Of a stretch of 64,000 nt of DNA, positions 1 through 51,478 are shown piece by piece. Numbering within the stretch: the stretch's first letter is position 1; each line of letters starts with the position of its first letter. Location of the stretch: sequence record LC739533.1. The stretch is one strand, 5' to 3'. The position numbers and the translations under genes were made by a program. The notes under the pieces are model-generated. The model saw only the letters and a program-made list of their open reading frames with translations. It did no database searches and was not told where the DNA came from. This DNA comes from Escherichia phage phiWec179.

Positions 1-35
1 GATTTAGCCATGATGTTAATCTCTTTTTCAGTGAG

Positions 36-94
36 GCGGGAACTATTCCCGCGCCCTATGTAATACAGTTTACTCTTTTTATTCGTGCTGTCAA
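36..94 (-). promoter_or_regulatory. Early promoter (TTGACA-N16-TAAACT) with conserved 5' leader hairpin, copy 1
   Basis: Minus strand: -35 TTGACA (89-94), 16-nt spacer, -10 TAAACT (67-72), then GTATTACATAGGGCG and perfect hairpin GCGGGAA/TTCCCGC (36-52). ATG of the next leftward gene is at 9-11; that gene runs off the window. Confidence 0.6.
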
Positions 95-100
95 TGCTTT

Positions 101-454
101 TTATAAATCTTTTTTACGTTTTACATCGCTTGCATGACTGTATACAGCGATCCCATTATCACGACAAAAACGGGTAAGGTATGATCCGCGTGAAAACTCT
201 TTCCCTTCCAGGTCAACAACCTTGCTAAATTCTTCCAGGGCAACGGTATCAAAATGATCACCATAACCATATTGAAACGGCACGTTAACAACTTCAATCA
301 ATTTACCGCCGATCTCAACGTCCACGCTTAAAGAAAAATATGTGTTACCGTAGGACTGTTGAAACCAGCGACGGGCGCTAATGTGAACGGCTTCAATCTC
401 ACCAATTTTAAATTGAGTGTTACCCAGGATCGCAACGTTGATATTTTTAGCCAT
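101..454 (-). CDS. Hypothetical protein (117 aa)
   Basis: Intact ORF in the leftward early cluster; no motif recognised. Confidence 0.6.
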   Translation of the reverse strand: MAKNINVAILGNTQFKIGEIEAVHISARRWFQQSYGNTYFSLSVDVEIGGKLIEVVNVPFQYGYGDHFDTVALEEFSKVVDLEGKEFSRGSYLTRFCRDNGIAVYSHASDVKRKKDL

Positions 455-550
455 GATTTTTTCTCTCTTTTTGGTTAGTGGGAAGTGTTCCCGATAAAAG
501 TTATTATGCTTATACTATCGTTTTTTGTCAATAGTATAAGACTAAAACTT

Positions 551-730
551 TTAACGATAATCATCGTAGGCTTTATTAACCTGGCGAATATAACATTCGA
601 AAGCGAGATCAATAGAATCATATTCCCGCACATAATCCCCGTAAGAAACTACATACACACCTTTTTGATCCTCAAACGTCATGATGATAGAATCCAGGCC
701 GATGATTTCAGTTTTAGCGATGATAGTCAT
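551..730 (-). CDS. Small hypothetical protein (59 aa)
   Basis: ORF MTIIAKTEIIGLD...; just downstream of promoter copy 2; not in the ORF track (<60 aa). Confidence 0.45.
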   Translation of the reverse strand: MTIIAKTEIIGLDSIIMTFEDQKGVYVVSYGDYVREYDSIDLAFECYIRQVNKAYDDYR

Positions 731-751
731 AATAATAACCTTTTTATTGTT

Positions 752-808
752 GGCGGCACCATTGCCGCCCTACGTGATAAACTATACCAGAATTTTAAAC
801 AGTGTCAA
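752..808 (-). promoter_or_regulatory. Early promoter (TTGACA-N16-TATAGT) with conserved 5' leader hairpin, copy 2
   Basis: Minus strand: -35 (803-808), -10 (781-786), then TTATCACGTAGGGCGG and perfect 7-bp hairpin GGCGGCA-AUGG-UGCCGCC (752-769). Confidence 0.6.
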
Positions 809-818
809 ACGTTTTTTC

Positions 819-1064
819 TTAGTTTGCGAAATATGGCGCGGCGGCTGATGCCGTTAATCTCCAAGTGATTTGGCTATCGATCAAGTATTCTTCATTCTTG
901 ATCCGCACGGTATCAATCGAGAAGTTACTGAAAGGCTTGCTCTTGATTTTACGAACAACCGTTACACGACGGTTATTTTTCATCTCTTTTAACTGAATCC
1001 AGGCGTAACCTTTTTCATTGACAAATATTTCATTGTGATTGGTGATAGATGATAAGTGTTTCAT
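819..1064 (-). CDS. Hypothetical protein (81 aa)
   Basis: ORF directly downstream of promoter copy 3. Confidence 0.55.
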   Translation of the reverse strand: MKHLSSITNHNEIFVNEKGYAWIQLKEMKNNRRVTVVRKIKSKPFSNFSIDTVRIKNEEYLIDSQITWRLTASAAAPYFAN

Positions 1065-1087
1065 GATTTTTCTCTCTTCTGTTTTGA

Positions 1088-1147
1088 GCGGTGGACCATT
1101 CCGCCGCCCTATGTGTTACATCTTACTACTTTTTTAAACATTGTCAA
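1088..1147 (-). promoter_or_regulatory. Early promoter (TTGACA-N16-TAAGAT) with conserved 5' leader hairpin, copy 3
   Basis: Minus strand: -35 (1142-1147), -10 (1120-1125), then GTAACACATAGGGCGGCGG and hairpin (1088-1107, one mismatch). Confidence 0.6.
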
Positions 1148-1155
1148 GGATATTT

Positions 1156-1437
1156 TTAACTATATGATCCACATCGTTCGCAGTAGTGATCATCGTCGTC
1201 ATCTGCTACCTGGCTGATAAAATGATCTACCTTTGCTTTCAAATTATTATAATTGCTTTCTACTTCCTGTAGTCGTCGTTGGTAGTATTCCAGGGCTTGC
1301 ACATAGGCCATTTGTTCGGTTTTAGCTTGCATAGCTAAATTCATGCCACGCGTTTCATCGTATAACCAATAACCATCATTACATTCACTAATAGATAGTG
1401 TAGGGCTTAGTTTTTCGTGACGGATAACCTTGCTCAT
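1156..1437 (-). CDS. Hypothetical protein (93 aa)
   Basis: Intact ORF; acidic DDDDD stretch followed by CxxC near the C-terminus. Confidence 0.55.
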   Translation of the reverse strand: MSKVIRHEKLSPTLSISECNDGYWLYDETRGMNLAMQAKTEQMAYVQALEYYQRRLQEVESNYNNLKAKVDHFISQVADDDDDHYCERCGSYS

Positions 1438-1447
1438 AGTGTGCCCC

Positions 1448-1558
1448 TTACTTCAAAATGATTGTTGTGATAACTGCTACGGTGATCCAGAATGGAACAA
1501 CTAAGATAATAGCGTTAATCGTTCCAACTGTCAAACTATTTTCTTTCTTGATCATCAT
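1448..1558 (-). CDS. Putative small hydrophobic peptide (36 aa)
   Basis: MMIKKENSLTVGTINAIILVVPFWITVAVITTIILK; AAGGA RBS. The longer track ORF 1448..1681 would run through the promoter hairpin. Confidence 0.35.
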   Translation of the reverse strand: MMIKKENSLTVGTINAIILVVPFWITVAVITTIILK

Positions 1559-1565
1559 GTTTTCC

Positions 1566-1649
1566 TTACAGTGTCCAAAGAATGATTTCAAGTGCAGCAC
1601 GGAAACCAGGAATAAAATTGATTGCAAAAAACAGGGAAGTAGTAAACAT
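1566..1649 (-). CDS. Putative tiny hydrophobic peptide (27 aa)
   Basis: MFTTSLFFAINFIPGFRAALEIILWTL; ATG about 20 nt downstream of the copy 4 hairpin. Confidence 0.25.
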   Translation of the reverse strand: MFTTSLFFAINFIPGFRAALEIILWTL

Positions 1650-1671
1650 TTTTCTATCCTTTCAGTTGTGA

Positions 1672-1727
1672 GCGGCACCATTGCCGCCTGATGAGTTAAC
1701 TATAAGGGATCACGTTTTACCTGTCAA
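1672..1727 (-). promoter_or_regulatory. Early promoter (TTGACA-N17-TATAGT) with conserved 5' leader hairpin, copy 4
   Basis: Minus strand: -35 (1722-1727), -10 (1699-1704), then TAACTCATCAGGCGG and hairpin GCGGCAAUGGUGCCGC (1672-1687). Confidence 0.55.
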
Positions 1728-2281
1728 CCTAAATCATCAAAATAAAGATAATTTTTTTCGGCTTCTTTCTTCTCTTCCTGTGATGCCTCAAAGACTGGGA
1801 GAAAGTGATCAAAGGCGACGCACTCAACCGCTTGATCGTCTTCCTCTTCCTGGTCTTCCTCCTGGGCTATGGCTGCAATTTTGGCTAATTTCCTTTCAGC
1901 CTGGATCAGCTTACCATCTAAAACGCTTTTAGCGGTGCTGTACGCCGTCCAAGTGATGCGCTTACTTTCCAGCGCGGCATCAAGCGCCGCTATCTTGCTG
2001 GGGTATTCATCCAGGACACGAAAAGCCGGATCTACCTTGTACAGCGGATTATCTTTCGCGCCGTCGCTATCATCTGCGGCGCTTGCAATGTCAGCGTTAC
2101 CATTCGCCAGCCAACCAGGGCGATCGCTGCGTGTTTTGGTATTCCCATGACTACGCGCCGATCTGTTGCCTACTTGCTCGCCACTATAGCCAGGAGCATG
2201 ATCGATCATGTCGTCCGGTATAATGCGCGGATCATTAACGTCATGTTTTACCCAGGACTGGATCACATATTCGCGCCCCAT
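1724..2281 (-). CDS. Hypothetical protein (185 aa)
   Basis: Intact ORF with acidic C-terminal region (EEDQEEEDD); no motif recognised. Confidence 0.6.
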   Translation of the reverse strand: MGREYVIQSWVKHDVNDPRIIPDDMIDHAPGYSGEQVGNRSARSHGNTKTRSDRPGWLANGNADIASAADDSDGAKDNPLYKVDPAFRVLDEYPSKIAALDAALESKRITWTAYSTAKSVLDGKLIQAERKLAKIAAIAQEEDQEEEDDQAVECVAFDHFLPVFEASQEEKKEAEKNYLYFDDLG

Positions 2282-2541
2282 TATACACCCCTTTTAACAA
2301 TCATTTCACACACAAGAAATAAGCTGGCGGAATCACGGCAAGGATAGAAAGATGTACGATAATCTCTCACCCCTGCTTTTATGATCTCCGTGGTTTTACC
2401 TGATAGCACATTGTAAATAGTGTAACTTGTCGGACTGTTTTTATATACCTTGCCAGGGTAGATCATAACATAACGAGCAAGGTTATAAAATTCCTCGTTA
2501 CGAAAGGCTATGATCTTCCCGCATACCTTAAGAAAGTGCAC
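2281..2541 (-). CDS. Hypothetical protein (86 aa), GTG start
   Basis: GTG at 2539-2541 preceded by AAGGGGG RBS; stop overlaps the start of the downstream gene. Confidence 0.45.
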   Translation of the reverse strand: MHFLKVCGKIIAFRNEEFYNLARYVMIYPGKVYKNSPTSYTIYNVLSGKTTEIIKAGVRDYRTSFYPCRDSASLFLVCEMIVKRGV

Positions 2542-2551
2542 GTTAGCCCCC

Positions 2552-2824
2552 TTACAGCAAAAAGTTTACTTGTCTTGCTGTTAATGTAGTATCAACCATT
2601 TTCGGGCTTTTATAATTGACAAAACGCGCGGTTTTTTCAATAGCGAAGCCGAGATAATCTTGTTTGTTGAAATTACATTCTTTCTTAAATGTTTCCCGTG
2701 CAATGGCGATCGCTGCGTCCAGGGATAAACGCCCGTCAATATTGATATTTGCGAAAGATCCGCCACCGCTCATAGGTTTACCAGTGGTGCCCGTTACGAT
2801 CATTGTTGCGCTATATGATGCCAT
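2552..2824 (-). CDS. Hypothetical protein (90 aa)
   Basis: Start taken at the internal Met (MASYSATMIV...) downstream of the copy 5 hairpin; the track start at 2860 lies inside the hairpin. Confidence 0.55.
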   Translation of the reverse strand: MASYSATMIVTGTTGKPMSGGGSFANINIDGRLSLDAAIAIARETFKKECNFNKQDYLGFAIEKTARFVNYKSPKMVDTTLTARQVNFLL

Positions 2825-2846
2825 GATGATAATCTCTCTTAGTTGT

Positions 2847-2908
2847 GAGCGGTGGACCATTCCGCCGCTCTACGTGATACATCTTATCAGGTTGTTGCCT
2901 GTTGTCAA
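2847..2908 (-). promoter_or_regulatory. Early promoter (TTGACA-N16-TAAGAT) with conserved 5' leader hairpin, copy 5
   Basis: Minus strand: -35 (2903-2908), -10 (2881-2886), then GTATCACGTAGAGCGGCGG and hairpin 2847-2870. Confidence 0.6.
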
Positions 2909-2914
2909 TACTTT

Positions 2915-3112
2915 TTATTCAAGCCCTACGATATGTAAGACACGGCGATTAGCAATAGCGTGCTGGTCTTCTGTTATAACGCCCATTTCTACCAGTGAAT
3001 CAAGAAAGGAAAGCACCGTGATATATTCGTCATCGGGTACACTCATTTCATTAGTACCGTTTACCACTACGTTGATTTGTCCTGCTTTCGCTACAATGTG
3101 CAATGTTGCCAT
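2915..3112 (-). CDS. Hypothetical protein (65 aa)
   Basis: Intact ORF with GGAG RBS; first gene of the leftward small-gene cluster. Confidence 0.5.
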   Translation of the reverse strand: MATLHIVAKAGQINVVVNGTNEMSVPDDEYITVLSFLDSLVEMGVITEDQHAIANRRVLHIVGLE

Positions 3113-3309
3113 GATCTTAACTCCAGGTGATGAATGATGTTTTTTGTTGGTTGACGGTGGATTATGGAGATCCTCACCTTTGCCCGTCCTGCATTGCGCC
3201 CTCCTGTTGTTTATTGTCGTTGTGCCTCGCCCCCCTCGACAAGATTAATACTACGCTACCAGGTGCGGAACGTCAACGACTTTTTCAATCTTTTTTATTT
3301 TCTTTTTGC

Positions 3310-3338
3310 TTGCTATATATAAAGGAAAGGGCTATCAT
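3310..3338 (+). promoter_or_regulatory. Putative sigma70-like promoter (TTGCTA-N17-TATCAT)
   Basis: Hexamers at 3310-3315 and 3333-3338, upstream of the rightward ORF at 3387. Confidence 0.35.
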
Positions 3339-3386
3339 CTTTCTACCGCGCCAACCAGGGCGCACAACAGAAGAAAGGGCGACACC

Positions 3387-3653
3387 ATGACAACTACTAC
3401 ATTACACCTTATGCACTCGTTAGGCTGGCAAGGCGGCACGGTCCACCAGGTAGCAAGCGCAACGGGCTTAAAGGTTGAAACAGTTCTCAACCTGGGCGAT
3501 CATAAAGTGGAAGAGATAGACCATTTTGATCCGTTCGCTGATGGTTATCTCTGGGCTTGCAGTGGCGGCGGGGAAAGCAAGATACCGCCAGCCGCGCGGG
3601 GCGATATGCATTTTTGGTTAGGTGTTCTCTCCTGGCAAGAAAACAAAAAATAA
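3387..3653 (+). CDS. Hypothetical protein (88 aa)
   Basis: ORF MTTTTLHLMHSLGWQGG...; divergent from the leftward cluster. Confidence 0.45.
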   Translation: MTTTTLHLMHSLGWQGGTVHQVASATGLKVETVLNLGDHKVEEIDHFDPFADGYLWACSGGGESKIPPAARGDMHFWLGVLSWQENKK

Positions 3654-3655
3654 TC

Positions 3656-3684
3656 TTGACAAGCCCAGGGATCGGGCTTATACT
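3656..3684 (+). promoter_or_regulatory. Consensus sigma70 promoter (TTGACA-N17-TATACT) firing into a non-coding region
   Basis: Perfect -35 at 3656-3661, 17-nt spacer, -10 TATACT at 3679-3684. No credible ORF with an RBS lies downstream before about 4470. Confidence 0.6.
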
Positions 3685-3908
3685 GTTTTACATACAGAAG
3701 AGGAAGCGCCACCCCACGGCGTAAAGGCGGGGCTAACATACCAGGGGCACTGGTTGGAAGGTCGATCGCCGGGAGGCTGGGCGCTATATATTTGTAAAGA
3801 AATGTAAAGATAAAATAATCGCTTGCTTTCCTGGCTGGATCTGTTATTCTTATTACATGGCGAGGGGACACGGGAGCGCGAGACAATCACCGGACCTGCC
3901 CGTCATTC

Positions 3909-4020
3909 TGCAAATGAGAAAAATTCTCATTTGCAAATAAGACTCATTCGCATTTAATAATTGAATGAGAATCATTCTCATTCTCATTCGTATTTCGATT
4001 TTAAGTGAGAATAATTCTCA
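3909..4020. repeat. Three palindromic operator-like sites with core TGAGAA-N1-3-TTCTCA
   Basis: Palindromes at 3909-3935 (12-bp arms), 3963-3983 (10-bp arms) and 4006-4020 (7-bp arms). Confidence 0.7.
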
Positions 4021-4034
4021 TTTCGGTAATTTTC

Positions 4035-4219
4035 ACGTAAACTTTAGAATTTGCTTTTCAACTTTCACTTTTGTAAAAGCAAAAAAACTTTAAATACCTG
4101 GTGCGCGCGACTTTTTAAAAAATTTTTCTCGGTTTTTTGCTTTGAAATCTGGCCCACCAATTTGAGATAGTGTACGTAAACTTTAGAATTTGGTTTTGGA
4201 TTCTCACTTTTGTAAACTC
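4035..4219. repeat. Imperfect ~46-bp direct repeat pair plus TTGAGATA triplet
   Basis: ACGTAAACTTTAGAATTT identical at 4035-4052 and 4174-4191, with similar extensions ending ACTTTTGTAAA. TTGAGATA occurs at 4162, 4248 and 4271. AT-rich context. Confidence 0.7.
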
Positions 4220-4375
4220 GTAAAAAGTTTAAATAATTGTAGGGATTTTGAGATAGTTTGCTTGTAAGGTTTGAGATAATCCTTCCCGAAGATGTTACGC
4301 AGCCTACAGCCTACCTGAATGCTCGTCTAACGAGATTAACTCTAAAAGATGAGTGTTGGTGTAGCTAAAGAGAAA

Positions 4376-4402
4376 AGGCTCTCTACGGTGTTGTAGGAGC
4401 CT
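4376..4402. terminator. Intrinsic terminator hairpin, probably bidirectional
   Basis: Stem AGGCUC/GAGCCU with extended CUAC/GUAG pairing; T-rich tail on the minus strand (UUUUCUCUUU) after the leftward operon, weaker T-tract on plus. Confidence 0.55.
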
Positions 4403-4473
4403 TATTTCTGTGGCACAAAGTTGACGTATTCTTTTTAAAAACGAATTTTTTCAAAATATCACGAATATCGCCT

Positions 4474-25543: not shown

Positions 25544-26026
25544 ATGTTGAAGGTTGTTACTGGGAATCTGATCGATGCCGCCAAGAATGGGAAAGTGAAC
25601 GTTATAGCCCACTGTTGTAACTGTATGTGTAATATGGGTGCAGGGATTGCTCCGCAAATTAAACGAGCATTTCCTTATGCATATGCAGCCGACTTGGATA
25701 CAGCGGCAGGTGATCAAAGCAAACTGGGTTCTTTTAGTTTAGGGGTGCCGGAGGAAGTGTCTGACCCACTGGTTTATAACCTGTACGGACAGTACCGTTA
25801 CGGGTATAACGGTAAAGGTCGTCAGTTGGACTATGATGCCCTGTACGATGCTCTTGAGGCTATGGCAAAGGATCTCCACAAATGGGTGAACACATCTGCC
25901 AAACATAAGATTGGTCTACCTATGATCGGAGCAGGGTTGGCAGGAGGTAATTGGGCTATCATTGAAGTGATGATTGAAGAAACTTTAGTAAAAACAGGTC
26001 ACGATGTGACTATTTATAAACTTTAA
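25544..26026 (+). CDS. Macro domain protein, TARG1/OARD1-like (ADP-ribose binding or hydrolysing)
   Basis: VNVIAHCCNCMCNMGAGIAPQIKRAFP and C-terminal LPMIGAGLAGGNWAIIEVMIEE...VTIYKL, close to recalled OARD1 motifs. Confidence 0.7.
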   Translation: MLKVVTGNLIDAAKNGKVNVIAHCCNCMCNMGAGIAPQIKRAFPYAYAADLDTAAGDQSKLGSFSLGVPEEVSDPLVYNLYGQYRYGYNGKGRQLDYDALYDALEAMAKDLHKWVNTSAKHKIGLPMIGAGLAGGNWAIIEVMIEETLVKTGHDVTIYKL

Positions 26027-26039
26027 GAGGAGAAATAAT

Positions 26040-26261
26040 ATGGGTGTTGTTGCAGGTGTTCTGGCAGTAGTTATCGTGTTTGTTCTGGCTTTCCTGATTA
26101 GTATGATTCCAGCATGGCTTCTGCTGCTGGCTTATAACTACGTTGTTGAAATGATGGGTCACACAGATATCACTGTTCCTATCACCTTCTGGACTGTGGT
26201 GTGTGTGGCATTTATCATGGCTGTACTACGTGGGATCTTTTCCTCAAGTTCTTCAAAATAA
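26040..26261 (+). CDS. Small membrane protein (73 aa)
   Basis: Two hydrophobic helices. Confidence 0.5.
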   Translation: MGVVAGVLAVVIVFVLAFLISMIPAWLLLLAYNYVVEMMGHTDITVPITFWTVVCVAFIMAVLRGIFSSSSSK

Positions 26262-26264
26262 GTG

Positions 26265-26323
26265 TTGACAAGGTTTTAGAATAGAGTAAGATGTATCACA
26301 TGAGGCGGGGAGTGGTTCCCCGC
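26265..26323 (+). promoter_or_regulatory. Conserved early promoter (TTGACA-N16-TAAGAT) with 5' leader hairpin, plus-strand copy upstream of terC
   Basis: -35 (26265-26270), -10 (26287-26292), then GTATCACATGAGGCGG and hairpin GCGGGGA/TCCCCGC (26305-26323). Confidence 0.6.
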
Positions 26324-26342
26324 AAAGAGAAAGGAGAAAATA

Positions 26343-27317
26343 ATGCAACTTGGTTTTCCAATCATTGATGTAGTGGTGTTGGTAGGTATTCTTGTTCTGT
26401 CGATCTGTGTTGACTTTTTTGGTCATCGTGAAAACAAGGAGATCTCTTTCAAATCCGCTGTGGCTTGGTCAGTATTCTGGATTGGTGTGTCTTTAGCCTA
26501 CTACGGTTTTGTATACTTCCAGCACGGCGCAGCTTTTGCAAACTTATTCTTGAGTGGATATGTGTTAGAGAAGTCGCTCTCGGTAGATAACTTGGTAGTG
26601 TTTGTAGCAGTGTTCTCCAGTTTCGGGATTAAGAGCACACACTTACAACACAAAATTCTACTCTGGGGTATTGCAGGTGCGATTGTCTTCCGAGGTGTGT
26701 TTGTAGCAGCAGGGACTTATCTGCTAAGTTTGGGTTGGTTTGTTAATATCATCTTCGGTGCTGTTATCCTGTTCTGTGCTTTTAAAATGGTAATGGCTGG
26801 CGGTGATGATGAAGAAGTGGATTACTCTAAACATTGGGCGACACGCTTTGTACGTAAACTATTCCCAGTATCGGATCAGATGGATGGCGAGAAGTTCTTC
26901 ACAATTAAGAATGGTGTTCGTGTAGCAACTCCGGCTCTGGTTTGTGTGTTCGTGATGGAAATGGTGGATGTGATCTTTGCAGTAGACTCGGTTCCGGCTG
27001 TAATTGCAGTGACACAAGAACCACTGCTTGTATTCTCTTCGATGCTCTGTGCAATCTTAGGCTTACGTGCTCTGTTCTTTGTTCTTAGTGTGGCCCTGAA
27101 GTATCTGGTTCACCTGGAAAAAGCAGTTATCGCAGTCCTGGTGTTTGTTGGTGTGAAACTGATGTATCACCCGTTTGCAGAAACGCTGCACGCAAAAGTG
27201 AGCTTCCTGCCAGCGCATATTGACCCGACGATCAGCATGTATATCGTGCTTGGTACTCTGACCCTGGGCGTGATTGCAAGTTTCATCTTCCCTGAAAAAG
27301 AAGAAGCTACCGCTTAA
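26343..27317 (+). CDS. terC: TerC-family integral membrane protein
   Basis: Signature segments EKSLSVDNLVVF and AVDSVPAVIAVTQEPLLVFSSMLCAILGLRALFF; multiple transmembrane helices. Confidence 0.85.
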   Translation: MQLGFPIIDVVVLVGILVLSICVDFFGHRENKEISFKSAVAWSVFWIGVSLAYYGFVYFQHGAAFANLFLSGYVLEKSLSVDNLVVFVAVFSSFGIKSTHLQHKILLWGIAGAIVFRGVFVAAGTYLLSLGWFVNIIFGAVILFCAFKMVMAGGDDEEVDYSKHWATRFVRKLFPVSDQMDGEKFFTIKNGVRVATPALVCVFVMEMVDVIFAVDSVPAVIAVTQEPLLVFSSMLCAILGLRALFFVLSVALKYLVHLEKAVIAVLVFVGVKLMYHPFAETLHAKVSFLPAHIDPTISMYIVLGTLTLGVIASFIFPEKEEATA

Positions 27318-37070: not shown

Positions 37071-38021
37071 GTGTTTATGGGACAAATTATTCTTGACAAT
37101 CGTGGTGGAAAAGAATATAGTGTCTGTGATTATCACCGAGTAATGCTGCCTTACACAAGGCAGTTCTCGGCCCAACCGTCACAGAACGTATATGTCTTTA
37201 ACGGTGTCCCTACGAAAGGGAAACAAGGCTTCATAGCCCTTAAGAGCATGGGCTTTAAGATGGTAATGGATTTGGATGACTCTTTAAACATTCCCCAAGG
37301 CCATATGCTGGAAGACATTTTTGATGCAGGTATTCGAGAAGACTTGCAATGGTTCCTCGAACGCAGTGATCTTGTAACGACAACAACCCCTGCTCTCCAG
37401 GTGGAATTGTCCCAGTACAATCCTAACGTGCATATTATCCCAAATGGTTTACCGTTTGACGAGGATCAGTTTACGTTAACTCGTGATCGCTACTCCAAGT
37501 CCCCTGTAGTTTGGGCTGGAAGTGAAACACACAAGCAAGACCTGGCTCTACTACCGAACTTCGGGAGTGACTTAACGATTTGCGGATTCCGCAGAGATAG
37601 TGAAGTGTTAAGTAGTCAGCAATGGACCGATATACGTGAAAAGGTGGCTCCAAGCTGCAAATATGAGGCTGTTAGACCATATGAGAGCTATATGGAATCT
37701 TACGACGGTCATCAGATAATGCTTGCACCTCTAACAGATAACATGTTTAATAACGCTAAGAGTAACCTGAAGATTCTGGAAGCAGGTGCCAAGGGTTTAC
37801 CTTTAGTGTGTTCTCCCCGTGAAAACTACTTCACCGAAGAGTTTAAAGATTTGTTGTTCTTTGCAGAAACAAAAAGCGAGTGGGAAGATATTGTTAATTA
37901 CCTGATCCAGTGTCCTGATGTGGGTATTGAAAAGGGATTAGCTTTAGCTAAGTATGTTCGTAAGCATTACCATATTGATGTGCTGAATGAACGCCGTAGA
38001 TTATTATTTGAGGAGTTATAA
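37071..38021 (+). CDS. GT-B fold glycosyltransferase, paralog 2
   Basis: KSNLKILEAGAKGLPLVCS; shares CDYHR(I/V)(V/M)(M/L)P and other blocks with the previous gene. Start codon GTG 37071 or ATG 37077. Confidence 0.6.
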   Translation: MFMGQIILDNRGGKEYSVCDYHRVMLPYTRQFSAQPSQNVYVFNGVPTKGKQGFIALKSMGFKMVMDLDDSLNIPQGHMLEDIFDAGIREDLQWFLERSDLVTTTTPALQVELSQYNPNVHIIPNGLPFDEDQFTLTRDRYSKSPVVWAGSETHKQDLALLPNFGSDLTICGFRRDSEVLSSQQWTDIREKVAPSCKYEAVRPYESYMESYDGHQIMLAPLTDNMFNNAKSNLKILEAGAKGLPLVCSPRENYFTEEFKDLLFFAETKSEWEDIVNYLIQCPDVGIEKGLALAKYVRKHYHIDVLNERRRLLFEEL

Positions 38022-38299
38022 TGCTGAATACTTTTGATTTTGAATACACTACGAAAAGTGGTTTTAATGTTGTGGTGGAGGTTGACTATTACTACGAAGA
38101 GCCTGATCCACACTCACGGGAAAGTGATTGGGATTACCACGGCGGGTTACTGATCGACGGTATCCGTTTCTATGCGGGTCTGGAACAGATTAATGCGGAA
38201 GACATTAACGTCACCGTAACAGAAATCGCATACCAATTCAAAAAACATATGGAGGCATTAGAAGCCGAGTACATGATGGAAACTAACGAATCATTTTAA
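38021..38299 (+). CDS. Hypothetical acidic protein (92 aa)
   Basis: ATG overlaps the upstream stop. Confidence 0.5.
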   Translation: MLNTFDFEYTTKSGFNVVVEVDYYYEEPDPHSRESDWDYHGGLLIDGIRFYAGLEQINAEDINVTVTEIAYQFKKHMEALEAEYMMETNESF

Positions 38300-38314
38300 C
38301 AGGAGAGGATGACC

Positions 38315-38953
38315 ATGAGGTTAGTACAAGGTTGGGGGATTAATGATATAGGTAGTATCCCTAAAACAGGTTTTATCCGAGTAGCTTACAGGTGTTGGTC
38401 AAGAGTTTTAGAAAGATCTCACAGTAAAGCTTGGAAGAATAAGTATCCTACATACAAGGATGTAACATGTTGCGAAGACTGGAAATATTTTTCAGTATTC
38501 ATGGACTGGATGGAGACACAACCTTGGGAAGGAAACGATTTGGATAAGGATTTGTTAGGAGATGGTAGCTTATACTCCCCTCAAACTTGTGTTTTTATAC
38601 CTCCTGAAATAAATAAAGCTTTAGCTGCAAATAAAAAACAAGGAGAATTCTTATCTGGAGTCTGGTTTCAAACAAAGTCTAAAACTATGGTTAATAGTTT
38701 AAAACGTCCTTGGGCTGTTAAAGCCCATAGACAGGGTAGTAAAAAACCTGTATATTTAGGAAACTATTATTCAGAACAAGAAGCCCATAATGTGTGGTTG
38801 ACTACACGCGCAGAGGATATGTTATGGTGGTGCGACCAATGGGAAAACAACGAGAAGTATAATAAATCTTGGAAACCTGTGTTTAAAGAAGCTTTTAATA
38901 AGAAAGCTGAAGCTTATAGAGGGAGGATAAAAAATGTCATACATTGTCACTAA
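38315..38953 (+). CDS. AP2-domain homing-endonuclease-like protein, paralog A
   Basis: N-terminal W..RC...Y..V.C.DW..F..F..W and LDKDLLGDGSLYSPQTC segment; C-terminal AP2-like VYLGNYYSEQEAHNVW. No catalytic His seen in the HNH-like segment. Confidence 0.5.
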   Translation: MRLVQGWGINDIGSIPKTGFIRVAYRCWSRVLERSHSKAWKNKYPTYKDVTCCEDWKYFSVFMDWMETQPWEGNDLDKDLLGDGSLYSPQTCVFIPPEINKALAANKKQGEFLSGVWFQTKSKTMVNSLKRPWAVKAHRQGSKKPVYLGNYYSEQEAHNVWLTTRAEDMLWWCDQWENNEKYNKSWKPVFKEAFNKKAEAYRGRIKNVIHCH

Positions 38954-40715
38954 GTATGGTTTTGATGTAGATTTAAGCAAAGAGGGGCACACAGGGTGTC
39001 CCCGTTGTATGAAGAACGGAAAAGATAGATCGAAGAATAACTTGATGTGTTATGGGTTGGATTCTAACGATGAGCATAAAGGAGCAAAATGCTTCGCGTG
39101 TGAGTACACAATCCCCAGCGTTGAATGGTTACGAGAGAATGGTGAAGTTTTAGAAGAAGAGGAGGATATTGTGGGTTCGGAATTTAATAAAGAGATTCAT
39201 CGTAAGATTGTAGAAGAAACAGGCACTAACCCACGAGGCTACCGTGGGATCAAGGAAGAATATTCTAAATTCTACGGTGTACGTTACCAGTACAAACAAG
39301 AAGAATCTGGTGTTGTTGTGGAACATACTTTGTATCCAACAACTATCGGTAAAGAACTGGTAGGTTTTAAGCGTCGTATCCACCCTAAAGACTTCTCCAA
39401 GCCCATTGGTCAAGTAGGTAAAGATGTAGATTTGTTTGGACAAGTTCGTTTCCTTGAGCGTTCCCACACCGTAATCATTACTGGTGGTGAACATGATGCC
39501 TTGGCAGCATATCAAATGTTGGCAGAAGGTCTTGACAGGAAATATGAATTACCAGCAGTAGTTAGTGGCACAACTGGTGAAACCAGTATGTACAAACAGG
39601 TACAGGCACAGTACCCTTTCTTTGAGAAGTTCAAGAAGATCATCGTCTGCATGGATAATGATAAGGCAGGTAAAGAAGCTTTTGAGAACATTGTGAAGGT
39701 GTTGCCTCGTAATAAAGTTTACCTGATGAAGATGGAACTGAAAGATGCTAATGAATACCTGGTGCAAGATAAAGCAAAAGATTTTGTGAAAGCTTATTGG
39801 GGTGCAAAACTTTATACCCCAGCGGGTGTTTATGCTTCGAACGAACTTTATGAAGCTGCAATGGACTGTCTGGATGCACAAGTGATCACCCTCCCTCCGT
39901 TCATGCGTACTGCTGCGAACATGTTGGGTGGTGGTCTGGTAGAAGAAGAGATCACAGTTATTCTGGCTAAAACGAGTATCGGTAAGACGTTGATGGTCAA
40001 TGAGATCACCAAACACATTATCGTGGCTCATCCAGAACATGTGCTGGGTATTCTGTCTCTGGAGGCAACGTATAAGAAATACTCCCGTAACCTTCTTTCT
40101 TCGTTCCTGCATATTCCTTTGCATCGTAAGACTAAGGAAGAAAAGGCTGCGATCCTGGAAGAGAACAAGGAAGCTATCAATAACTTCTACGTTCGTGAAG
40201 ATGGTTCTCCTCGCTTCTTTGTTTGTGATGATCGTGGTGCAGACATTGATTCAATCAAGGAGAAAGTGCTGGAGATGATCATCTACTTCGGCATTACCAT
40301 CCTGGTAATTGACCCATACTCGGATCTGTTGTCGGGGATGAGTGTTCAGGAACAAGAAGAGTTGGCAACGTGGTTGAAGCGCATCATGAAAGAATACGGC
40401 ATCACGATCATTGTAATCTCGCACGTTAAGAAAGCTGCCAACAATGGTAACGAACACTTAACAGAAGATGATGCAATGGGTAGTAGCTTCTTGGCTAAAG
40501 GCGCAGGTATTACACTGGCACTGGAACGAGATAAGGCTAACGATGACCCCGTACTTAGAAACACAACTTTTTGTTATATTCTCAAAAACCGAGAGTTTTC
40601 AGAAACTGGTCCGGCTGGGGAGTTTTATTACGATATTAAAACTGCCACGCTACACGACAAAGCACAGTATTTTGCTAACCCTGATAATGCAGGTGGTGCA
40701 GAAGGCGCGTATTGA
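38934..40715 (+). CDS. Bifunctional primase-helicase (T7 gp4-like)
   Basis: N-terminal zinc ribbon CPRC...CFAC, TOPRIM-like VIITGGEHDALAAYQ, DnaB-like Walker A ILAKTSIGKT and IIVISHVKK. Confidence 0.8.
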   Translation: MSYIVTKYGFDVDLSKEGHTGCPRCMKNGKDRSKNNLMCYGLDSNDEHKGAKCFACEYTIPSVEWLRENGEVLEEEEDIVGSEFNKEIHRKIVEETGTNPRGYRGIKEEYSKFYGVRYQYKQEESGVVVEHTLYPTTIGKELVGFKRRIHPKDFSKPIGQVGKDVDLFGQVRFLERSHTVIITGGEHDALAAYQMLAEGLDRKYELPAVVSGTTGETSMYKQVQAQYPFFEKFKKIIVCMDNDKAGKEAFENIVKVLPRNKVYLMKMELKDANEYLVQDKAKDFVKAYWGAKLYTPAGVYASNELYEAAMDCLDAQVITLPPFMRTAANMLGGGLVEEEITVILAKTSIGKTLMVNEITKHIIVAHPEHVLGILSLEATYKKYSRNLLSSFLHIPLHRKTKEEKAAILEENKEAINNFYVREDGSPRFFVCDDRGADIDSIKEKVLEMIIYFGITILVIDPYSDLLSGMSVQEQEELATWLKRIMKEYGITIIVISHVKKAANNGNEHLTEDDAMGSSFLAKGAGITLALERDKANDDPVLRNTTFCYILKNREFSETGPAGEFYYDIKTATLHDKAQYFANPDNAGGAEGAY

Positions 40716-40798: not shown

Positions 40799-43396
40799 AT
40801 GAGTAAGTTTACATGGGATATTGAAGCAACCGCATTACTGAACAATGACACAATTGATTACCTGGCAAGCCCTTATCGATTGAAAGACACTTTTGGTATG
40901 CATTGTATTTGTCTGGAAAACCACGAAACAGGAGAGATCATTGCTTTTCACGATGGTCCTAAGTACATTTTCGATGGTCGTCCTTATGAAGAGTCTGACG
41001 GTAAGTACACTTATGTACTGAAGGAGTATGTGGCACAAGAATACACACACTTTCCTCTGTCAGATTTTCCAGATTTTGTCAACCATACAGGCAAGTTCGC
41101 AGATAAGCCTGAATACCTCGTAGAAATGGCTGTAGCCCACAACGGCATCAACTATGACCACTTGGCAGTTAAGCTTTACTACGGGCTGAATTACAGCGTT
41201 AAATACAATACTTGGGGTGATTCGAAAGTTAAGATTATTGATACCCTGATCCTTAGTAAAGTATTGAACCCTGATCGCAAGGTTGATGGTAAACCTGGGC
41301 ACAACTTGAATGCTCTTTCTAAAAAAGCTGGCGGTGATGTTAAGATTGATTTCCGTAAAGAGCTTCCAGAAGGAGAACGATTCAAGACTTTCGCAGCAGA
41401 TATGTTGTACTACTGTATCTACGACAACAAGGCAACTACAGCAGTATATTATTACCTCATGGAAGAATGGGGCGATTATAAGAAGTGGCAAGAGCCGTTC
41501 GACTTGGAGCAACGTATTGCGGATATCATCACCCGTCAAGAACACCGTGGCTTTAAGTTCAACATGCAACAAGCTGAACAGAACCTGGAATTCTTGGACA
41601 AAGAAATGGAACGTCTACGTTTGTTGGTAGAGCCTATTCTTCCACCTAAGCCAGCGACTAAAGGTTATCTGAAAGATTTTATTCCGCCGAAACTTCAAAT
41701 CAAGAAGAACGGTGAGCCAACAAACCATATCATCAGGTTTGCGGAGAAACATGGCGGTAGCCTTGAAGAACGTGAAGGTGATTGGTGGCTGCTTGTTTTA
41801 GATAAAGAGTTTAAGTTACCGATCTCAAGTGAAGAACCTATTTGTGAACCTACCATTCCGTCTACGCTGAATGATACGACACACATTAAAAACTGGCTTG
41901 TAGGTTTAGGTTGGGTTCCGTCTGAATATAAAGACAAGGATTTGACGCTTAAATCTGGTTCGAAGATCAAGAAAGATCCTGACGACTTAGAGAAAGGTAT
42001 TCTGTCTTATGTCAAACAGACCTTGGAAAGCAATTTCTGTAATGACCGTTGCGAACACTTACAAGCCGATGCTGAAACACTGGAGCTTAGAATCCGTGAA
42101 CGTCTGGCTAAAGGGAAAGGTCGTGGTCTTAAAGTGCTGACCAACCCATGCTTCACGAAGGGGCAGGAGAAAGAGATTTGTCCTAATCTTGAAGCACTGG
42201 GCGAGAAGTTCCCGTATGCCACACAGATTGTGCAGTACCTGACGTACAAACATCGTCGAAACTCTATTTTGGGCGGTGGTGCAGATTGGGAAGACGATGA
42301 GGAAGATCAAGAATACGACAAAGGTTTCTTGGCAGCAGTTCGTGCCGATGGTCGTATAGCGACTCCAGCGGCTACATGTGACGCTGCAACATCTCGTATG
42401 AAGCATCGCTCTGTTGCTAACGTTCCTCGCGTTACATCGTTGTTTGGGTACGAAATGCGTAACTTGTTTGGGGTAGAAACACCGCGTTACTTCCAGATCG
42501 GTTATGACTTTGACTCCTTGGAAGCAAAGATTGAGTCGCATTATTGTTGGCGCTACGAACCGGAGCCTCATGAATACTGTAACGCTCTCTTGTTGGAGAA
42601 GCCTAACGATGTTCATACCATGATGGCAAGACGTATCACAGAAACTATTGGACGTAAGTTTGAACGTAGTCCAGCTAAATCTGTTAAATACGGGATTACA
42701 TATGGAGCACAGGCAGACAAAGTTGCTAAGACAATTGGTAGTGATAAGTACACAGGACAACTGGTATTTGATGCGTTCTGGGAAGCAGCTTTCCCGTTAG
42801 CACAACTGAAAGAGAAGTTGAATGCTTTCTGGGTTAACACTGGCAAGCAGTATGTTCTCGGTATTGATGGACGTAAAGTTCCAACACGATCTGCACATGC
42901 AATCTTAAACTCCTTGTTCCAAAGTGGCGGGGTTATCTGTGCCAAGCGTGCAATGGTAATCTATGACGATATGATTGAAGAGGAAGGTTTAGCTGTTGAC
43001 TTCTTCGTAGATGACTGGAAGAATAAAGAGTTCGTTCAGCAAATGATTGCTTACCACGATGAAGCGCAGCTTGAAGTATCTCGTAACTTGGTGGAATTTA
43101 AATGGTTCTCCAAAGAGTCTTTAGGTTGGGTTAAAGTGGATGACGAGAAAGAGCAGAAGAAAATAGATGCGGAATGTCTTGCAAAAGCTAATGAATGGAA
43201 GCATAATAAAGAGAAAGAGACAGGGCAGATTTGGGCTAACGTTCACGAATCACCTAAAGGTGGTTGGTTTACCGCTTATAGTCGTGCCGGAGAACTTGCT
43301 TCTCTTGCTGTTATCAAAGCTGGGGAATATTACAAACTAAACGTTCAGCTTACCGCTGGATACGATGTTGGTAGTTCCTGGGCCAGTTGTCATTGA
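40799..43396 (+). CDS. Family A DNA polymerase with 3'-5' proofreading exonuclease
   Basis: Exo I FTWDIEAT; motif A IGYDFDSLEAK; motif B RSPAKSVKYGITYG; motif C IAYHDEAQ. Confidence 0.85.
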   Translation: MSKFTWDIEATALLNNDTIDYLASPYRLKDTFGMHCICLENHETGEIIAFHDGPKYIFDGRPYEESDGKYTYVLKEYVAQEYTHFPLSDFPDFVNHTGKFADKPEYLVEMAVAHNGINYDHLAVKLYYGLNYSVKYNTWGDSKVKIIDTLILSKVLNPDRKVDGKPGHNLNALSKKAGGDVKIDFRKELPEGERFKTFAADMLYYCIYDNKATTAVYYYLMEEWGDYKKWQEPFDLEQRIADIITRQEHRGFKFNMQQAEQNLEFLDKEMERLRLLVEPILPPKPATKGYLKDFIPPKLQIKKNGEPTNHIIRFAEKHGGSLEEREGDWWLLVLDKEFKLPISSEEPICEPTIPSTLNDTTHIKNWLVGLGWVPSEYKDKDLTLKSGSKIKKDPDDLEKGILSYVKQTLESNFCNDRCEHLQADAETLELRIRERLAKGKGRGLKVLTNPCFTKGQEKEICPNLEALGEKFPYATQIVQYLTYKHRRNSILGGGADWEDDEEDQEYDKGFLAAVRADGRIATPAATCDAATSRMKHRSVANVPRVTSLFGYEMRNLFGVETPRYFQIGYDFDSLEAKIESHYCWRYEPEPHEYCNALLLEKPNDVHTMMARRITETIGRKFERSPAKSVKYGITYGAQADKVAKTIGSDKYTGQLVFDAFWEAAFPLAQLKEKLNAFWVNTGKQYVLGIDGRKVPTRSAHAILNSLFQSGGVICAKRAMVIYDDMIEEEGLAVDFFVDDWKNKEFVQQMIAYHDEAQLEVSRNLVEFKWFSKESLGWVKVDDEKEQKKIDAECLAKANEWKHNKEKETGQIWANVHESPKGGWFTAYSRAGELASLAVIKAGEYYKLNVQLTAGYDVGSSWASCH

Positions 43397-44621: not shown

Positions 44622-45219
44622 ATCAAGCCAGATTACCCTTGCCCGTGAGATCCTTACTGTTCTTAAGATTGCTGATCCTCGTTCAATCCTGGCAGGTGGC
44701 GCGGTCCGTGATTGGTACATGCTGGACATTGCAGGGCGAGATCTGGACTTCTATACATCATTCCAGCCACACCGAAACATAGATCAGGTGATTACGTTTA
44801 TCAAAGAGAATCTTAAAGGCACCAATGTAACCGTGTTAGGTCAGGAGGAAATGGGTGACAACTATGAGTCTATGATCGGACTGAAACATGTGTTTGAGTT
44901 TATCCGTGATGATCAGGTTTGCAATCTCATGATCATGGAACCATGCTACATGAGCAACATCCTGAAAAACTTTGATCTTTCTGTTTGCAAAGCTTCGTTT
45001 GATGGTGTAGAATATTACTTCGATCCTGACTTCCTGGTAACAGATGCAACAAATATTTGCTTCGTGCATAAGGATGTTAAAGTGGATGCGAAACACGTCC
45101 GTAAGATCGCGGATCGCTTCCCGCACATGCGTTTTGTACGTGACTTGGATGTGCAGCGTCGCACGCAAGATAAGGCTCTACCAAAGTTCGAAGATACTGA
45201 TGAAGATATTCCTTGGTAA
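44614..45219 (+). CDS. Minimal nucleotidyltransferase (CCA-adding/poly(A) polymerase head-domain-like) with SSB-tail-like C-terminus
   Basis: ILAGGAVRDWYMLDIAGRDLDFY resembles the GGxVRD...DxD head-domain motif. Protein ends EDTDEDIPW, resembling the SSB tip DDDIPF. Confidence 0.45.
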   Translation: MTKSSQITLAREILTVLKIADPRSILAGGAVRDWYMLDIAGRDLDFYTSFQPHRNIDQVITFIKENLKGTNVTVLGQEEMGDNYESMIGLKHVFEFIRDDQVCNLMIMEPCYMSNILKNFDLSVCKASFDGVEYYFDPDFLVTDATNICFVHKDVKVDAKHVRKIADRFPHMRFVRDLDVQRRTQDKALPKFEDTDEDIPW

Positions 45220-45263: not shown

Positions 45264-45659
45264 ATGACTGAACGTTCAAAAGTAAGTGTTGAAACTGAAT
45301 ACAGCGAATACCTGAACAGTTTGATACTTGTTGAAAAAGATGTAATAGGTCTGGATAACTCGTTCTTCTTTCAAATCCTGATAGGTAAGGGTGGACACCG
45401 AAAGTTATTCTCTCGCGTGGAAGACTCTGACCTATCCGAAACTGAAATAACGGTTAAAGAACTTATTAGCCTACAGGATAACATCCGAAAAGTTATTGAC
45501 ACAGCCGGGAACGCTGTTACAATAAAACTCGACATGCATTCTGTGCAATTTGTTCATTTTCCGAATGGAGAAATTGGAGTTGGAATAGGTAAAGGTAAGT
45601 ACCTTTTAGAAAAAGAAAACGCAGAGCTTCTTCGTGAGTTCTGTGCAAAAACAATGTGA
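45264..45659 (+). CDS. Hypothetical protein (131 aa)
   Basis: Intact ORF. Confidence 0.55.
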   Translation: MTERSKVSVETEYSEYLNSLILVEKDVIGLDNSFFFQILIGKGGHRKLFSRVEDSDLSETEITVKELISLQDNIRKVIDTAGNAVTIKLDMHSVQFVHFPNGEIGVGIGKGKYLLEKENAELLREFCAKTM

Positions 45660-49324: not shown

Positions 49325-49344
49325 TTTTATCCTCCATAAAAGAA

Positions 49345-49362
49345 AAGCCCCTTGCGGGGCTT
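49345..49362 (-). terminator. Intrinsic terminator between tail-fibre genes
   Basis: Stem AAGCCCC / GGGGCTT with TTGC loop and U-tract on the minus strand; RBS GGAGG of the next gene follows. Confidence 0.6.
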
Positions 49363-49365
49363 CTA

Positions 49366-51411: not shown

Positions 51412-51455
51412 TTATTTACTCCTGATTAATCATTCGTTTATCGTTGGGAGTTAAA

Positions 51456-51476
51456 AAGGGGGACAAGCCCCCTTTC
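51456..51476 (-). terminator. Intrinsic terminator after the tailspike gene
   Basis: Stem AAGGGGG / CCCCCTT with 5-nt loop and U-tract on the minus strand. Confidence 0.6.
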
Positions 51477-51478
51477 AC

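Follow-up and report, generated by a model that had tools for sequence, protein, structure and literature searches.

Early promoter cassettes with a transcribed GC-rich hairpin in an Escherichia phapecoctavirus, and a possible role of the hairpin at the mRNA 5' end

In Escherichia phage phiWec179 (sequence record LC739533.1; the analyzed stretch of 64,000 nucleotides (nt) is called the window here), many small early genes are preceded by a repeated cassette, in which a sigma-70-type promoter is followed at a fixed distance by a GC-rich hairpin. Five such copies lie on the minus strand between window positions 36 and 2,908. The family is real and much larger than was first reported. We read the element as an early expression cassette resembling the promoter-early stem-loop (PeSL) cassettes of T4-like phages, whose transcribed hairpin would stabilize the 5' end of the mRNA, and we give this reading about an even chance of being right. 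Promoter activity, the exact start site and the stabilizing effect are what we infer from the sequence.

In window positions 1-3400, the identity to Escherichia phage phiWec181 (LC739534.1, 48119-51518) is 100%; this phage is a 154.5-kb myovirus of the genus Phapecoctavirus, subfamily Stephanstirmvirinae. The whole genome was rebuilt from the window and two flanking stretches, and coordinates marked "record" below follow the correspondence of window 1-3400 to record 48119-51518. Small leftward genes, all annotated as 'hypothetical protein', form a block at record 16.9-51.5 kb, and the five copies occupy its right-hand end. The genes 3' of the cassettes gave no Pfam match and fell only into PHROGs families of unknown function, and some of them are common to other phage families.

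All five minus-strand copies reported by the first-pass annotation were recovered at their positions (Table 1), and a pattern for the promoter with the first bases of the 5' arm (TTGACA-N15-18-TANNNT-N5-10-RGGCG) matched the window five times but never in 100 shuffles. The copies had been called near-identical, but their pairwise identity is 46-73% over about 85 nt, so that the architecture rather than the sequence is what they have in common. From the consensus quoted for them, TTGACA and the spacer of 16-17 nt hold in all five, whereas copies 1 and 4 deviate. Nor are five copies the full set: there are a sixth leftward copy, a plus-strand copy and about 16 more to the left of the window edge, and the genome-wide count that had been proposed gave about 22-23 copies per genome, 7 of them in the window. 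The profile search over the genome returned 21 good matches in record 39.9-51.0 kb and the plus-strand copy, some with weaker -35 boxes; the weaker matches include one decayed hairpin and one promoter-less hairpin. The idea that nearly every small leftward gene has its own promoter was too generous, as the window holds 7 promoters for about 10 leftward genes. Association of the hairpin with early promoters is nevertheless strong. Among strict contexts of promoter, Shine-Dalgarno sequence (SD) and ATG, the hairpin is present in 12 of 20 in the early cluster by an automatic rule (17 of 20 by eye) and in 3 of 66 in the rest of the genome (Fisher p = 3e-7), and about 95% of the family hairpins are accompanied by a promoter.

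Reading of all intergenic regions of the cluster gave the full unit: an upstream stop codon in an A-rich tract (TAAAAAG), TTGACA, the spacer, the -10 box, GTATCAC-R-TAG and the hairpin, after which come (C)UCACAAC, a purine-rich SD (GAAGAGAGA) and AUC-AUG. The string TAAAAAG(N)TTGACA is present in most of these regions, and in cassette 4 the TGA stop of the upstream open reading frame (ORF) falls inside TTGACA itself. The cassette promoters agree with the consensus at 10-11 of 12 positions, often with TGn before the -10 box (in two of the five window copies), and are sigma-70-type by sequence. Folded as RNA, the five window hairpins reach -11.9 to -16.4 kcal/mol (z -2.0 to -4.5 against dinucleotide shuffles). 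Stems in the family are GC-rich and 7-12 bp long, and the SD region is unpaired in every minimum-energy fold. The first paired base follows the -10 box at a distance of 8-13 nt (mode 11), a spacing found also in Vequintavirus and Asteriusvirus. RNA polymerase of E. coli usually starts at a purine 7-8 nt after the -10 box. Since the conserved R is the 8th nucleotide after the box, the RNA start is predicted 0-4 nt ahead of the stem, and the initial GU lengthens the stem in several copies. The hairpin had been placed 10-30 nt into the transcript, but it starts at about +1 to +5 and has its 3' end at about +22 to +28 of the predicted transcript. A search of the whole window against Rfam at gathering thresholds gave no match, and at E<=1 over 1-3600 the sole match was mir-7637, a chance match on the palindrome around promoter 531. 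The loop AAUGGU at 1681 and 2860 (minus strand) contains an ATG in frame with the downstream gene, so that two genes reach into the hairpin in mechanical ORF calls (ORFs 1448-1681 and 2552-2860); their SD-preceded starts are at 1651 and 2824.

On this anatomy, the cassette would work as follows. It would begin at the stop codon of the preceding gene, and unmodified host RNA polymerase would read the near-consensus sigma-70 promoter behind an A-rich, UP-like tract. Transcription would start within the conserved GTATCAC-R-TAG segment, and the first 22-28 nt of the RNA would fold into the 7-12 bp GC-rich hairpin with about 0-4 bases left unpaired at the 5' end, followed by an unpaired A-rich spacer with the SD and the start codon of a small, functionally uncharacterized gene. 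The hairpin would be a 5'-terminal protective structure, and the ribosome site would be kept free of upstream context, whichever gene follows. Early mRNA should live longer with a hairpin flush with its terminus, since an unpaired 5' end is required by RppH and by the 5' sensor of RNase E. This requirement of RNase E and RppH explains the long-known stabilization by 5' structure (PMC3997798). Known 5'-stabilizing stem-loops are the hairpins in the 5' untranslated regions of ompA and papA (Emory, Bouvet and Belasco 1992, as cited in PMC3997798), and the T4 gene 32 mRNA is described as stabilized by a 5' hairpin (Gorski et al. 1985, as cited in PMC8948821). The hairpins of the cassettes resemble these leaders in lying at or near the predicted 5' end, in favoring pairing over sequence and in leaving the downstream ribosome site open. 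On the other hand, ompA, papA and gene 32 have single, gene-specific leaders that were shown experimentally, whereas here about 20 leaders per genome follow one design at a fixed distance from the promoter and were read from the sequence.

To see whether the hairpin is kept as a structure, we collected 76 promoter-anchored contexts from 18 loci, which reduced to 50 distinct hairpins, and tested the 43-44 GC-rich ones. The loci came from this genome, phAPEC8, ASO2A, phiWec188, nepoznato, PsgM04F and Citrobacter phage Tr1 and, for other genera, from alia (Justusliebigvirus), FV3 and slur16 (Vequintavirus) and slurp01 (Asteriusvirus); IMG/VR contigs were also used. The inner stems fall into 19 classes (e.g., CGGCA/TGCCG, GGGAA/TTCCC, GGGCG/CGCCC, GGGGA/TCCCC, GGAAA/TTTCC and GAGAA/TTCTC). 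Native hairpins fold with a mean of -12.9 kcal/mol, compared with -8.4 for chimeras joining arms of different classes. A loop-anchored count, which uses no folding program, found 93% canonical pairs in the first seven positions; 2000 partner shuffles gave 65%, with a maximum of 74%. Pair positions 2, 5 and 6 switch among G-C, C-G and A-U, and the loops of 3-6 nt vary in sequence (UAG, UGG, UGU, AAC, ACA, CAC, ACAAG, AUGG and others). Moreover, whole hairpins have been exchanged in place. At loci orthologous to cassette 1, with the same gene and the same promoter half, the hairpin is of the GGGCGCGGGAA-TAG-TTCCCGCC, the GAGAGCGGGAA-CAC-TTCCCGCC or the GGCGGCGGA-ATGG-TCCACCGCC type; the cassette 5 orthologue in alia is of the GGCGGCA/TGCCGC type, and that in PsgM04F has its C.A mismatch repaired to C-G. 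This retention of a hairpin in place while its sequence is exchanged is the strongest evidence for selection on structure that the sequences offer, and together with the compensatory variation it would indicate selection on pairing itself. Pairing with free sequence, which is typical of stabilizing stem-loops, is thus seen here at the level of an evolutionary signature. An alignment of 40 hairpin contexts (MAFFT with RNAalifold) predicted 0 pairs; its gaps lay in the 5' arm only, leaving the arms out of register, so that we treated this result as an alignment artefact and used the loop-anchored counts and arm-swap folding instead.

The element thus appears to match what the stabilizing role predicts: a fixed 5' position, a stem that keeps its pairing but not its sequence, a ribosome site left open and occurrence at nearly every early unit. 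The first-pass annotation had proposed a transcribed element with a shared RNA-level role, naming leader stabilization, a processing site or a polymerase-modifying RNA. The family of sigma-70-type early promoters stands, and leader stabilization would fit best, because the hairpin lies at the predicted 5' end, its pairing is kept while its sequence is free, and the SD is unpaired. The other two options fare badly, as described below.

Several points weigh against a stabilizing role. The number of unpaired 5' nucleotides should be about 0-4 if transcription starts at the 7th-8th nucleotide, a value derived from the promoter geometry. The comparison of strands gives a mixed picture: of 44 distinct hairpins, 34 fold more stably as sense than as antisense RNA (Wilcoxon p = 0.002), which leans toward the sense RNA, but the hairpins are related and the C.A mismatch of the common GCGG-C-GGA/TCC-A-CCGC type becomes G.U in the antisense. 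The 5' arm (RTAGGGCGG) is conserved as sequence, which could reflect a constraint on DNA or on the initial transcribed sequence instead of RNA structure. Family hairpins without a promoter exist, though they are rare (record 41300-41343 and one each in ASO2A and Tr1), and may be either decayed cassettes or a sign of a role within read-through transcripts. One orthologous gene in alia, in turn, has the promoter without the hairpin. Thus, the link of the hairpin to the 5' end is not a strict one, and the hairpin can be dispensed with. In addition, the literature on Phapecoctavirus, Justusliebigvirus, Vequintavirus and Asteriusvirus yielded no start-site, transcriptome, half-life or reporter data, and no paper in our coverage, which did not include the phAPEC8 and PVP-SE1 genome papers, discusses the element. 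The promoter-less family hairpins (e.g., GGGGCGGCAACGCCCC) lie between two genes, among them those at L004 2383-2414 and, at L109, upstream of the coding sequence 1002-1139.

A GC-rich hairpin of 7-12 bp recalls an intrinsic terminator, and the ASO2A GenBank record indeed calls these hairpins 'rho-independent terminator (WebGeSTer)'. They might stop or damp transcription arriving from upstream cassettes, or attenuate their own promoter until a phage factor relieves it. Strong promoters stand every 300-600 bp, so undamped read-through would build up, and a PeSL stem-loop lowered lacZ expression in a reporter by as much as rrnB T1 did (PMC2839356); for the PeSL stem-loops of RB49/phi1, such stopping or damping has been proposed and in part demonstrated. 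In RB49, however, the stem-loop lies within the promoter and outside the transcript. The family hairpin stands between a promoter and that promoter's own gene, so that an efficient terminator there would silence the gene. It also has no U-tract, being followed by CACAAC, CAACAA or CUAACA. A terminator scan flagged no minus-strand hairpin, and its overall count of 4 equals the shuffle expectation of 4.0. Canonical terminators with T-runs do occur in the cluster, but upstream of promoters (record 45446-45503 (AAGGGCGCAAATAGCGCCCTTTCTT), 39046-39184, 43092-43289 and 39866-40116). The possibility that the motif is the 3' terminator of the upstream gene therefore falls away, and we consider termination or attenuation in general quite unlikely.

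A binding site for a protein would be a different kind of RNA element: a nut/boxB-like antitermination site, a translational operator of early genes or an endonuclease processing signal. An element common to many early transcripts in three phage lineages is what a trans-acting factor would lead one to expect. Moreover, 37 of 43 hairpins close the loop with an A-U pair, many apices read AAU(A/G)GU, and some hairpin types retain a bulge or mismatch. The free variation of loop length (3-6 nt), loop sequence and stems speaks against this, and the swapping of hairpin types at orthologous sites without change of the gene is hard to reconcile with sequence-specific recognition. Like the lambdoid nut sites (boxA/boxB) and HK022 put, the family has a transcribed hairpin close to the promoter of an early phage transcript, but it differs in its variable loops and stems, in the lack of boxA, in a single simple hairpin instead of the two-stem put fold and in its many copies per genome. 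We found neither a GNRA-like boxB pentaloop with boxA nor a put fold; no boxA-like match appeared when 1-3 mismatches were allowed, and there was no Rfam match, so that the polymerase-modifying option of the first pass loses its footing. Its processing-site option suffers from the stems, whose 7-12 bp are too short for RNase III, which needs about two helical turns (about 20 bp). Immediate-early expression must also precede any phage protein. A protein-binding role is unlikely in our judgment.

The hairpin might have no function of its own, as a passenger in a mobile or recombination-prone cassette that is maintained through descent and gene conversion, or it might act only as DNA, as a recombination hotspot, a phage-specific promoter or an operator. 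In the phAPEC8 record the 20-mer RTAGGGCGGCAATGGTGCCG is labeled 'putative promoter determined with PHIRE', and the sequence conservation of the 5' arm would suit a DNA element. Cassettes mark indel junctions, some cassettes are hybrids whose promoter and hairpin halves agree with different relatives, and unrelated phage lineages share genes along with cassettes. Compensatory variation over 19 stem classes and the retention of a hairpin after its replacement are not expected of a passenger, however. A dimeric DNA-binding protein requires conserved half-sites; the half-sites here vary, and palindromes as variable as these rule out a sequence-specific protein of this kind. PHIRE reports any repeated 20-mer, the element stands at a fixed distance 3' of a complete sigma-70 promoter with no -10-like sequence after it, and recombination needs homology, not a palindrome. 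Such explanations seem to us improbable, much as termination does.

Finally, cleavage in the A-rich spacer might leave the hairpin as the 3' end of the preceding cistron, where it would block 3' exonucleases like REP elements. Most cassettes have no preceding terminator, so that read-through transcripts must carry internal hairpins; promoter-less hairpins are found between genes, and the A/U-rich, single-stranded flanks are of the kind that RNase E prefers. Yet it is the -10 box, not the upstream stop codon, from which the hairpin keeps a tight, conserved distance, and nearly all of the hairpins have a promoter. We hold this reading very improbable, though such an effect could act alongside protection of the 5' end of the downstream cistron.

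Protection of the 5' end remains our preferred reading. The element resembles a known system, which the first pass missed; it also overlooked the part played by the repeats in recombination and the presence of the design in other phage lineages. PeSL cassettes were described in the T4-like phages RB49/phi1, PST and nt-1 (Arbiol et al. 2010, PMC2839356; Comeau et al. 2014, PMC4122927). They combine a sigma-70 early promoter, an A-T-rich upstream part with the previous stop codon, a stem-loop and SD/ATG, and they occur in hyperplastic regions before ORFans and allow modular shuffling (PMC2839356, PMC4122927). Likewise, the units here are repeats of about 85-100 bp with a stop codon in an A-rich tract, a near-consensus sigma-70 promoter, a GC stem-loop and SD with start codon. 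They are densely packed in a plastic early region before small genes of unknown function, and they bound single-gene indels between close relatives. The position of the stem-loop differs. The RB49 PeSLs that we read are of the form TAAAAAGTTGTTGACAGGGGATCACCGATCCCCTATAAT; their stem-loop spans the -10 box or stands between the two boxes, so that it lies in the promoter and is absent from its own transcript, whereas the family hairpin is at or after the predicted start site, not within or just before the promoter, and would be transcribed at the 5' end of the mRNA. The family hairpin also lacks a terminator-like tail and has no sequence similarity to the RB49 PeSLs (the cassette query matched no T4-like record), and the phages are Stephanstirmvirinae, Vequintavirinae and Asteriusvirus here but Straboviridae for the PeSLs. 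Four other promoters of this phage do carry promoter-embedded stem-loops like those of RB49 (Table 1). Probably the most fitting description of the element is a PeSL-like cassette for early expression whose 5' hairpin is transcribed, a variant of the cassettes known in T4-like phages.

With about 85 bp of similar sequence every 300-600 bp, the cassettes also serve as substrates of homologous recombination, by which single genes, and even hairpins, are added, removed or swapped in the way proposed for the T4-like PeSLs. We compared indels between record 39.5-51.3 kb and phiWec188, nepoznato, PsgM04F and one IMG/VR relative, and found many that comprise a single gene. Block boundaries fell in a cassette or within 15 bp of one in 23 of 58 cases against 22% by chance (p = 0.002), a moderate enrichment, and one that counts against our reading in that the events are shared among relatives and not independent. 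There were four clean junctions from cassette to cassette, with alignment ends overlapping by 6-64 nt (Table 1); other block boundaries lay at stop codons without a cassette. Hybrid cassettes were found at orthologous loci. We had expected the cassette-rich region to be the more plastic, and this was rejected: relatives cover 40-74% of the cassette-rich stretch but, in most of them, about 25-30% of the cassette-poor stretch (record 17-37 kb). Since the cassette-poor region is the less conserved, cassettes contribute to plasticity but are not required for it.

The design is not confined to this genus. A 95-nt cassette query matched 672 places in 151 phage records, from Phapecoctavirus, Justusliebigvirus and Vequintavirus. 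The phage alia has 13 copies in 9 kb, and FV3 and slur16 have several copies each with different stems. In slurp01, a 348-kb jumbo phage, a gene with its leader is 81-83% identical to record 47890-48129, and several of its small genes (L108 500-3300) are preceded by CTTGCA-17-TATAAT, then GTTTTACATC, then GAGAGCGGGAA-NNN-TTCCCGC, in the same architecture and spacing. Useful IMG/VR contigs, all phapecoctavirus-like, were L038, L046, L053, L040 and L066. A scan of IMG/VR for the promoter with TAGGGCGG listed 84 loci (97 matching stretches counted), nearly all of them single chance matches, and was set aside. In the T7-like podovirus CLB_P1 (Kayfunavirus; L110 1501-1770), gp0.15 is a homologue of the early gene at record 39632-39865 with 88% nucleotide identity. 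It has no family cassette upstream and is an early gene of unknown function common to very different phages. Over the early region, this coliphage has 85-96% identity to records named 'Campylobacter phage' (MG0656xx, unannotated), 'Pseudomonas phage PsgM04F' and 'Acinetobacter phage vB_AbaM_ABPW7', whose host labels look doubtful.

It is conceivable, though we hold it unlikely, that the element is an early-mRNA tag shared horizontally by large virulent coliphages from at least three unrelated lineages (phAPEC8/phi92-like, rV5-like and jumbo PBECO4-like Asteriusvirus) and does more than generic stabilization. Such a tag could mark transcripts for escape from RNA decay that is induced by infection or related to defense, or for recognition by a conserved factor, and the cassette would then travel with its gene between phage families as a self-sufficient expression module. 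A T4 Srd-like protein was sought because an activator of RNase E would fit the protection of phage mRNA while host mRNA decays; tblastn of T4 Srd against the whole genome gave nothing below E = 1.3, and in the paper on rV5 a probable homologue of Srd is reported for that phage on the basis of PSI-BLAST.

The element has already been noticed in database records, but it is mislabeled there with conflicting automatic labels. In the phAPEC8 record, the sigma-70 part is a 'host dependent promoter (MEME)' and the hairpin 20-mer is the PHIRE putative promoter, and in the ASO2A record the hairpins are labeled as terminators directly after annotated promoters. In practice, the same element is thus currently a 'promoter' in one GenBank record (phAPEC8) and a 'terminator' in another (ASO2A). 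If protection of the 5' end is true, the cassette would be a compact standard part of about 85 bp that combines promoter, stabilizer and ribosome site, by which any small gene could be expressed on entry, and the same part would double as a recombination joint for swapping such genes, many of which probably have functions in host takeover or anti-defense. It would also extend the PeSL idea beyond T4-like phages with an RNA-level component, and the cassettes may serve as ready-made strong expression parts for E. coli.

Table 1. Coordinates of the cassettes, related promoters, junctions and neighboring features (window positions unless marked as record).
Feature	Position	Strand	Description
Cassette 1	12..106	-	-35 94-89; spacer 16; -10 TAAACT 72-67; SD; ATG 11-9
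Cassette 1, upstream end		-	stop codon of the preceding gene and A-tract
Cassette 1, hairpin	56-33	-	GGGCGCGGGAA-TAG-TTCCCGCCTC
Sixth leftward copy	455..550	-	-35 531-526; -10 CATAAT 508-503
Sixth leftward copy, hairpin	492-480	-	short, GGGAA-CAC-TTCCC; -5.5 kcal/mol; distance to -10 as in the family
Inverted repeat at sixth copy	495-551	-	10-12 bp, CTTATACTAT...ATAGTATAAG, bracketing the -35 of promoter 531
Cassette 2	731..818	-	-35 808-803; spacer 16; extended -10 TGgTATAGT 786-781; SD; ATG 730
Cassette 2, hairpin	773-749	-	core GGCGGCA-ATGG-TGCCGCC 769-752
Cassette 3	1065..1155	-	-35 1147-1142; spacer 16; -10 TAAGAT 1125-1120; SD; ATG 1064
Cassette 3, hairpin	1109-1086	-	GGGCGGCGGA-ATGG-TCCACCGCTC, internal C.A mismatch
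Cassette 4	1652..1735	-	-35 1727-1722; spacer 17; -10 TATAGT 1704-1699; SD; ATG 1651
Cassette 4, hairpin	1688-1671	-	GGCGGCA-ATGG-TGCCGCT, outermost pair G.U
Cassette 5	2825..2914	-	-35 2908-2903; spacer 16; extended -10 TGaTAAGAT 2886-2881; SD; ATG 2824
Cassette 5, hairpin	2873-2845	-	core GAGCGGCGGA-ATGG-TCCACCGCTC
First leftward promoter	3113..3290	-	TTGACG 3276-3271; TAGTAT 3253-3248
Plus-strand copy	26250..26342	+	-35 26265-26270; -10 TAAGAT 26287-26292; then GTATCACATGAG; SD
Plus-strand copy, hairpin	26305-26323	+	GCGGGGA-GTGGT-TCCCCGC
TerC-family membrane protein gene	26343-27317	+	directly 3' of the plus-strand cassette
Embedded stem-loop	record 46699-46776		across -10
Embedded stem-loop	record 42824-42905		between the boxes
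Embedded stem-loop	record 39046-39184		across -35
Embedded stem-loop	531		around -35
Junction	record 44963/45209		phiWec188 without gene 44971-45171; 17 nt overlap
Junction	record 47023/47410		nepoznato without two genes; 64 nt overlap, one hybrid cassette left
Junction	record 41632/41694		PsgM04F, cassette duplicated around an extra gene
Junction	record 42275/42617		both boundaries within cassettes

The first leftward promoter has a leader of 135 nt (3113-3247) without the family hairpin. The leader at the orthologous site in phAPEC8, phiWec188 and nepoznato is short and contains a GGGCGGCAATGGTGCCGC hairpin. In the 135-nt leader, a mini-ORF of 6 codons (ATGCAGGACGGGCAAAGGTGA) follows a strong AGGAGG site. 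Around the plus-strand copy, genes for a macro-domain protein, a small membrane ORF and the TerC-family protein are grouped together (window 25544-27317, plus strand).

Next to the five copies, a stretch of about 800 nt (3656-4470) is free of ORFs, and the element at window 3656-3685 (plus strand) is oriented rightwards into it. The ORF-free stretch contains four copies of a 21-nt palindrome, AAATGAGAAnnATTCTCATTT (3912-3932, 3935-3955, 3963-3983 and 4003-4023), which is Fur-box-like (TGAGAAT-N-ATTCTCA), and two direct repeats of 62 nt (4035-4096 and 4174-4235) that are 84% identical. The palindromes and direct repeats could be an operator array, an origin or a small RNA locus. Elsewhere in the genome, about 1.5 kb without an annotated gene (record 37081-38625) separates the cassette-poor from the cassette-rich early region, and the rV5 paper describes a comparable 'non-coding' box in rV5.

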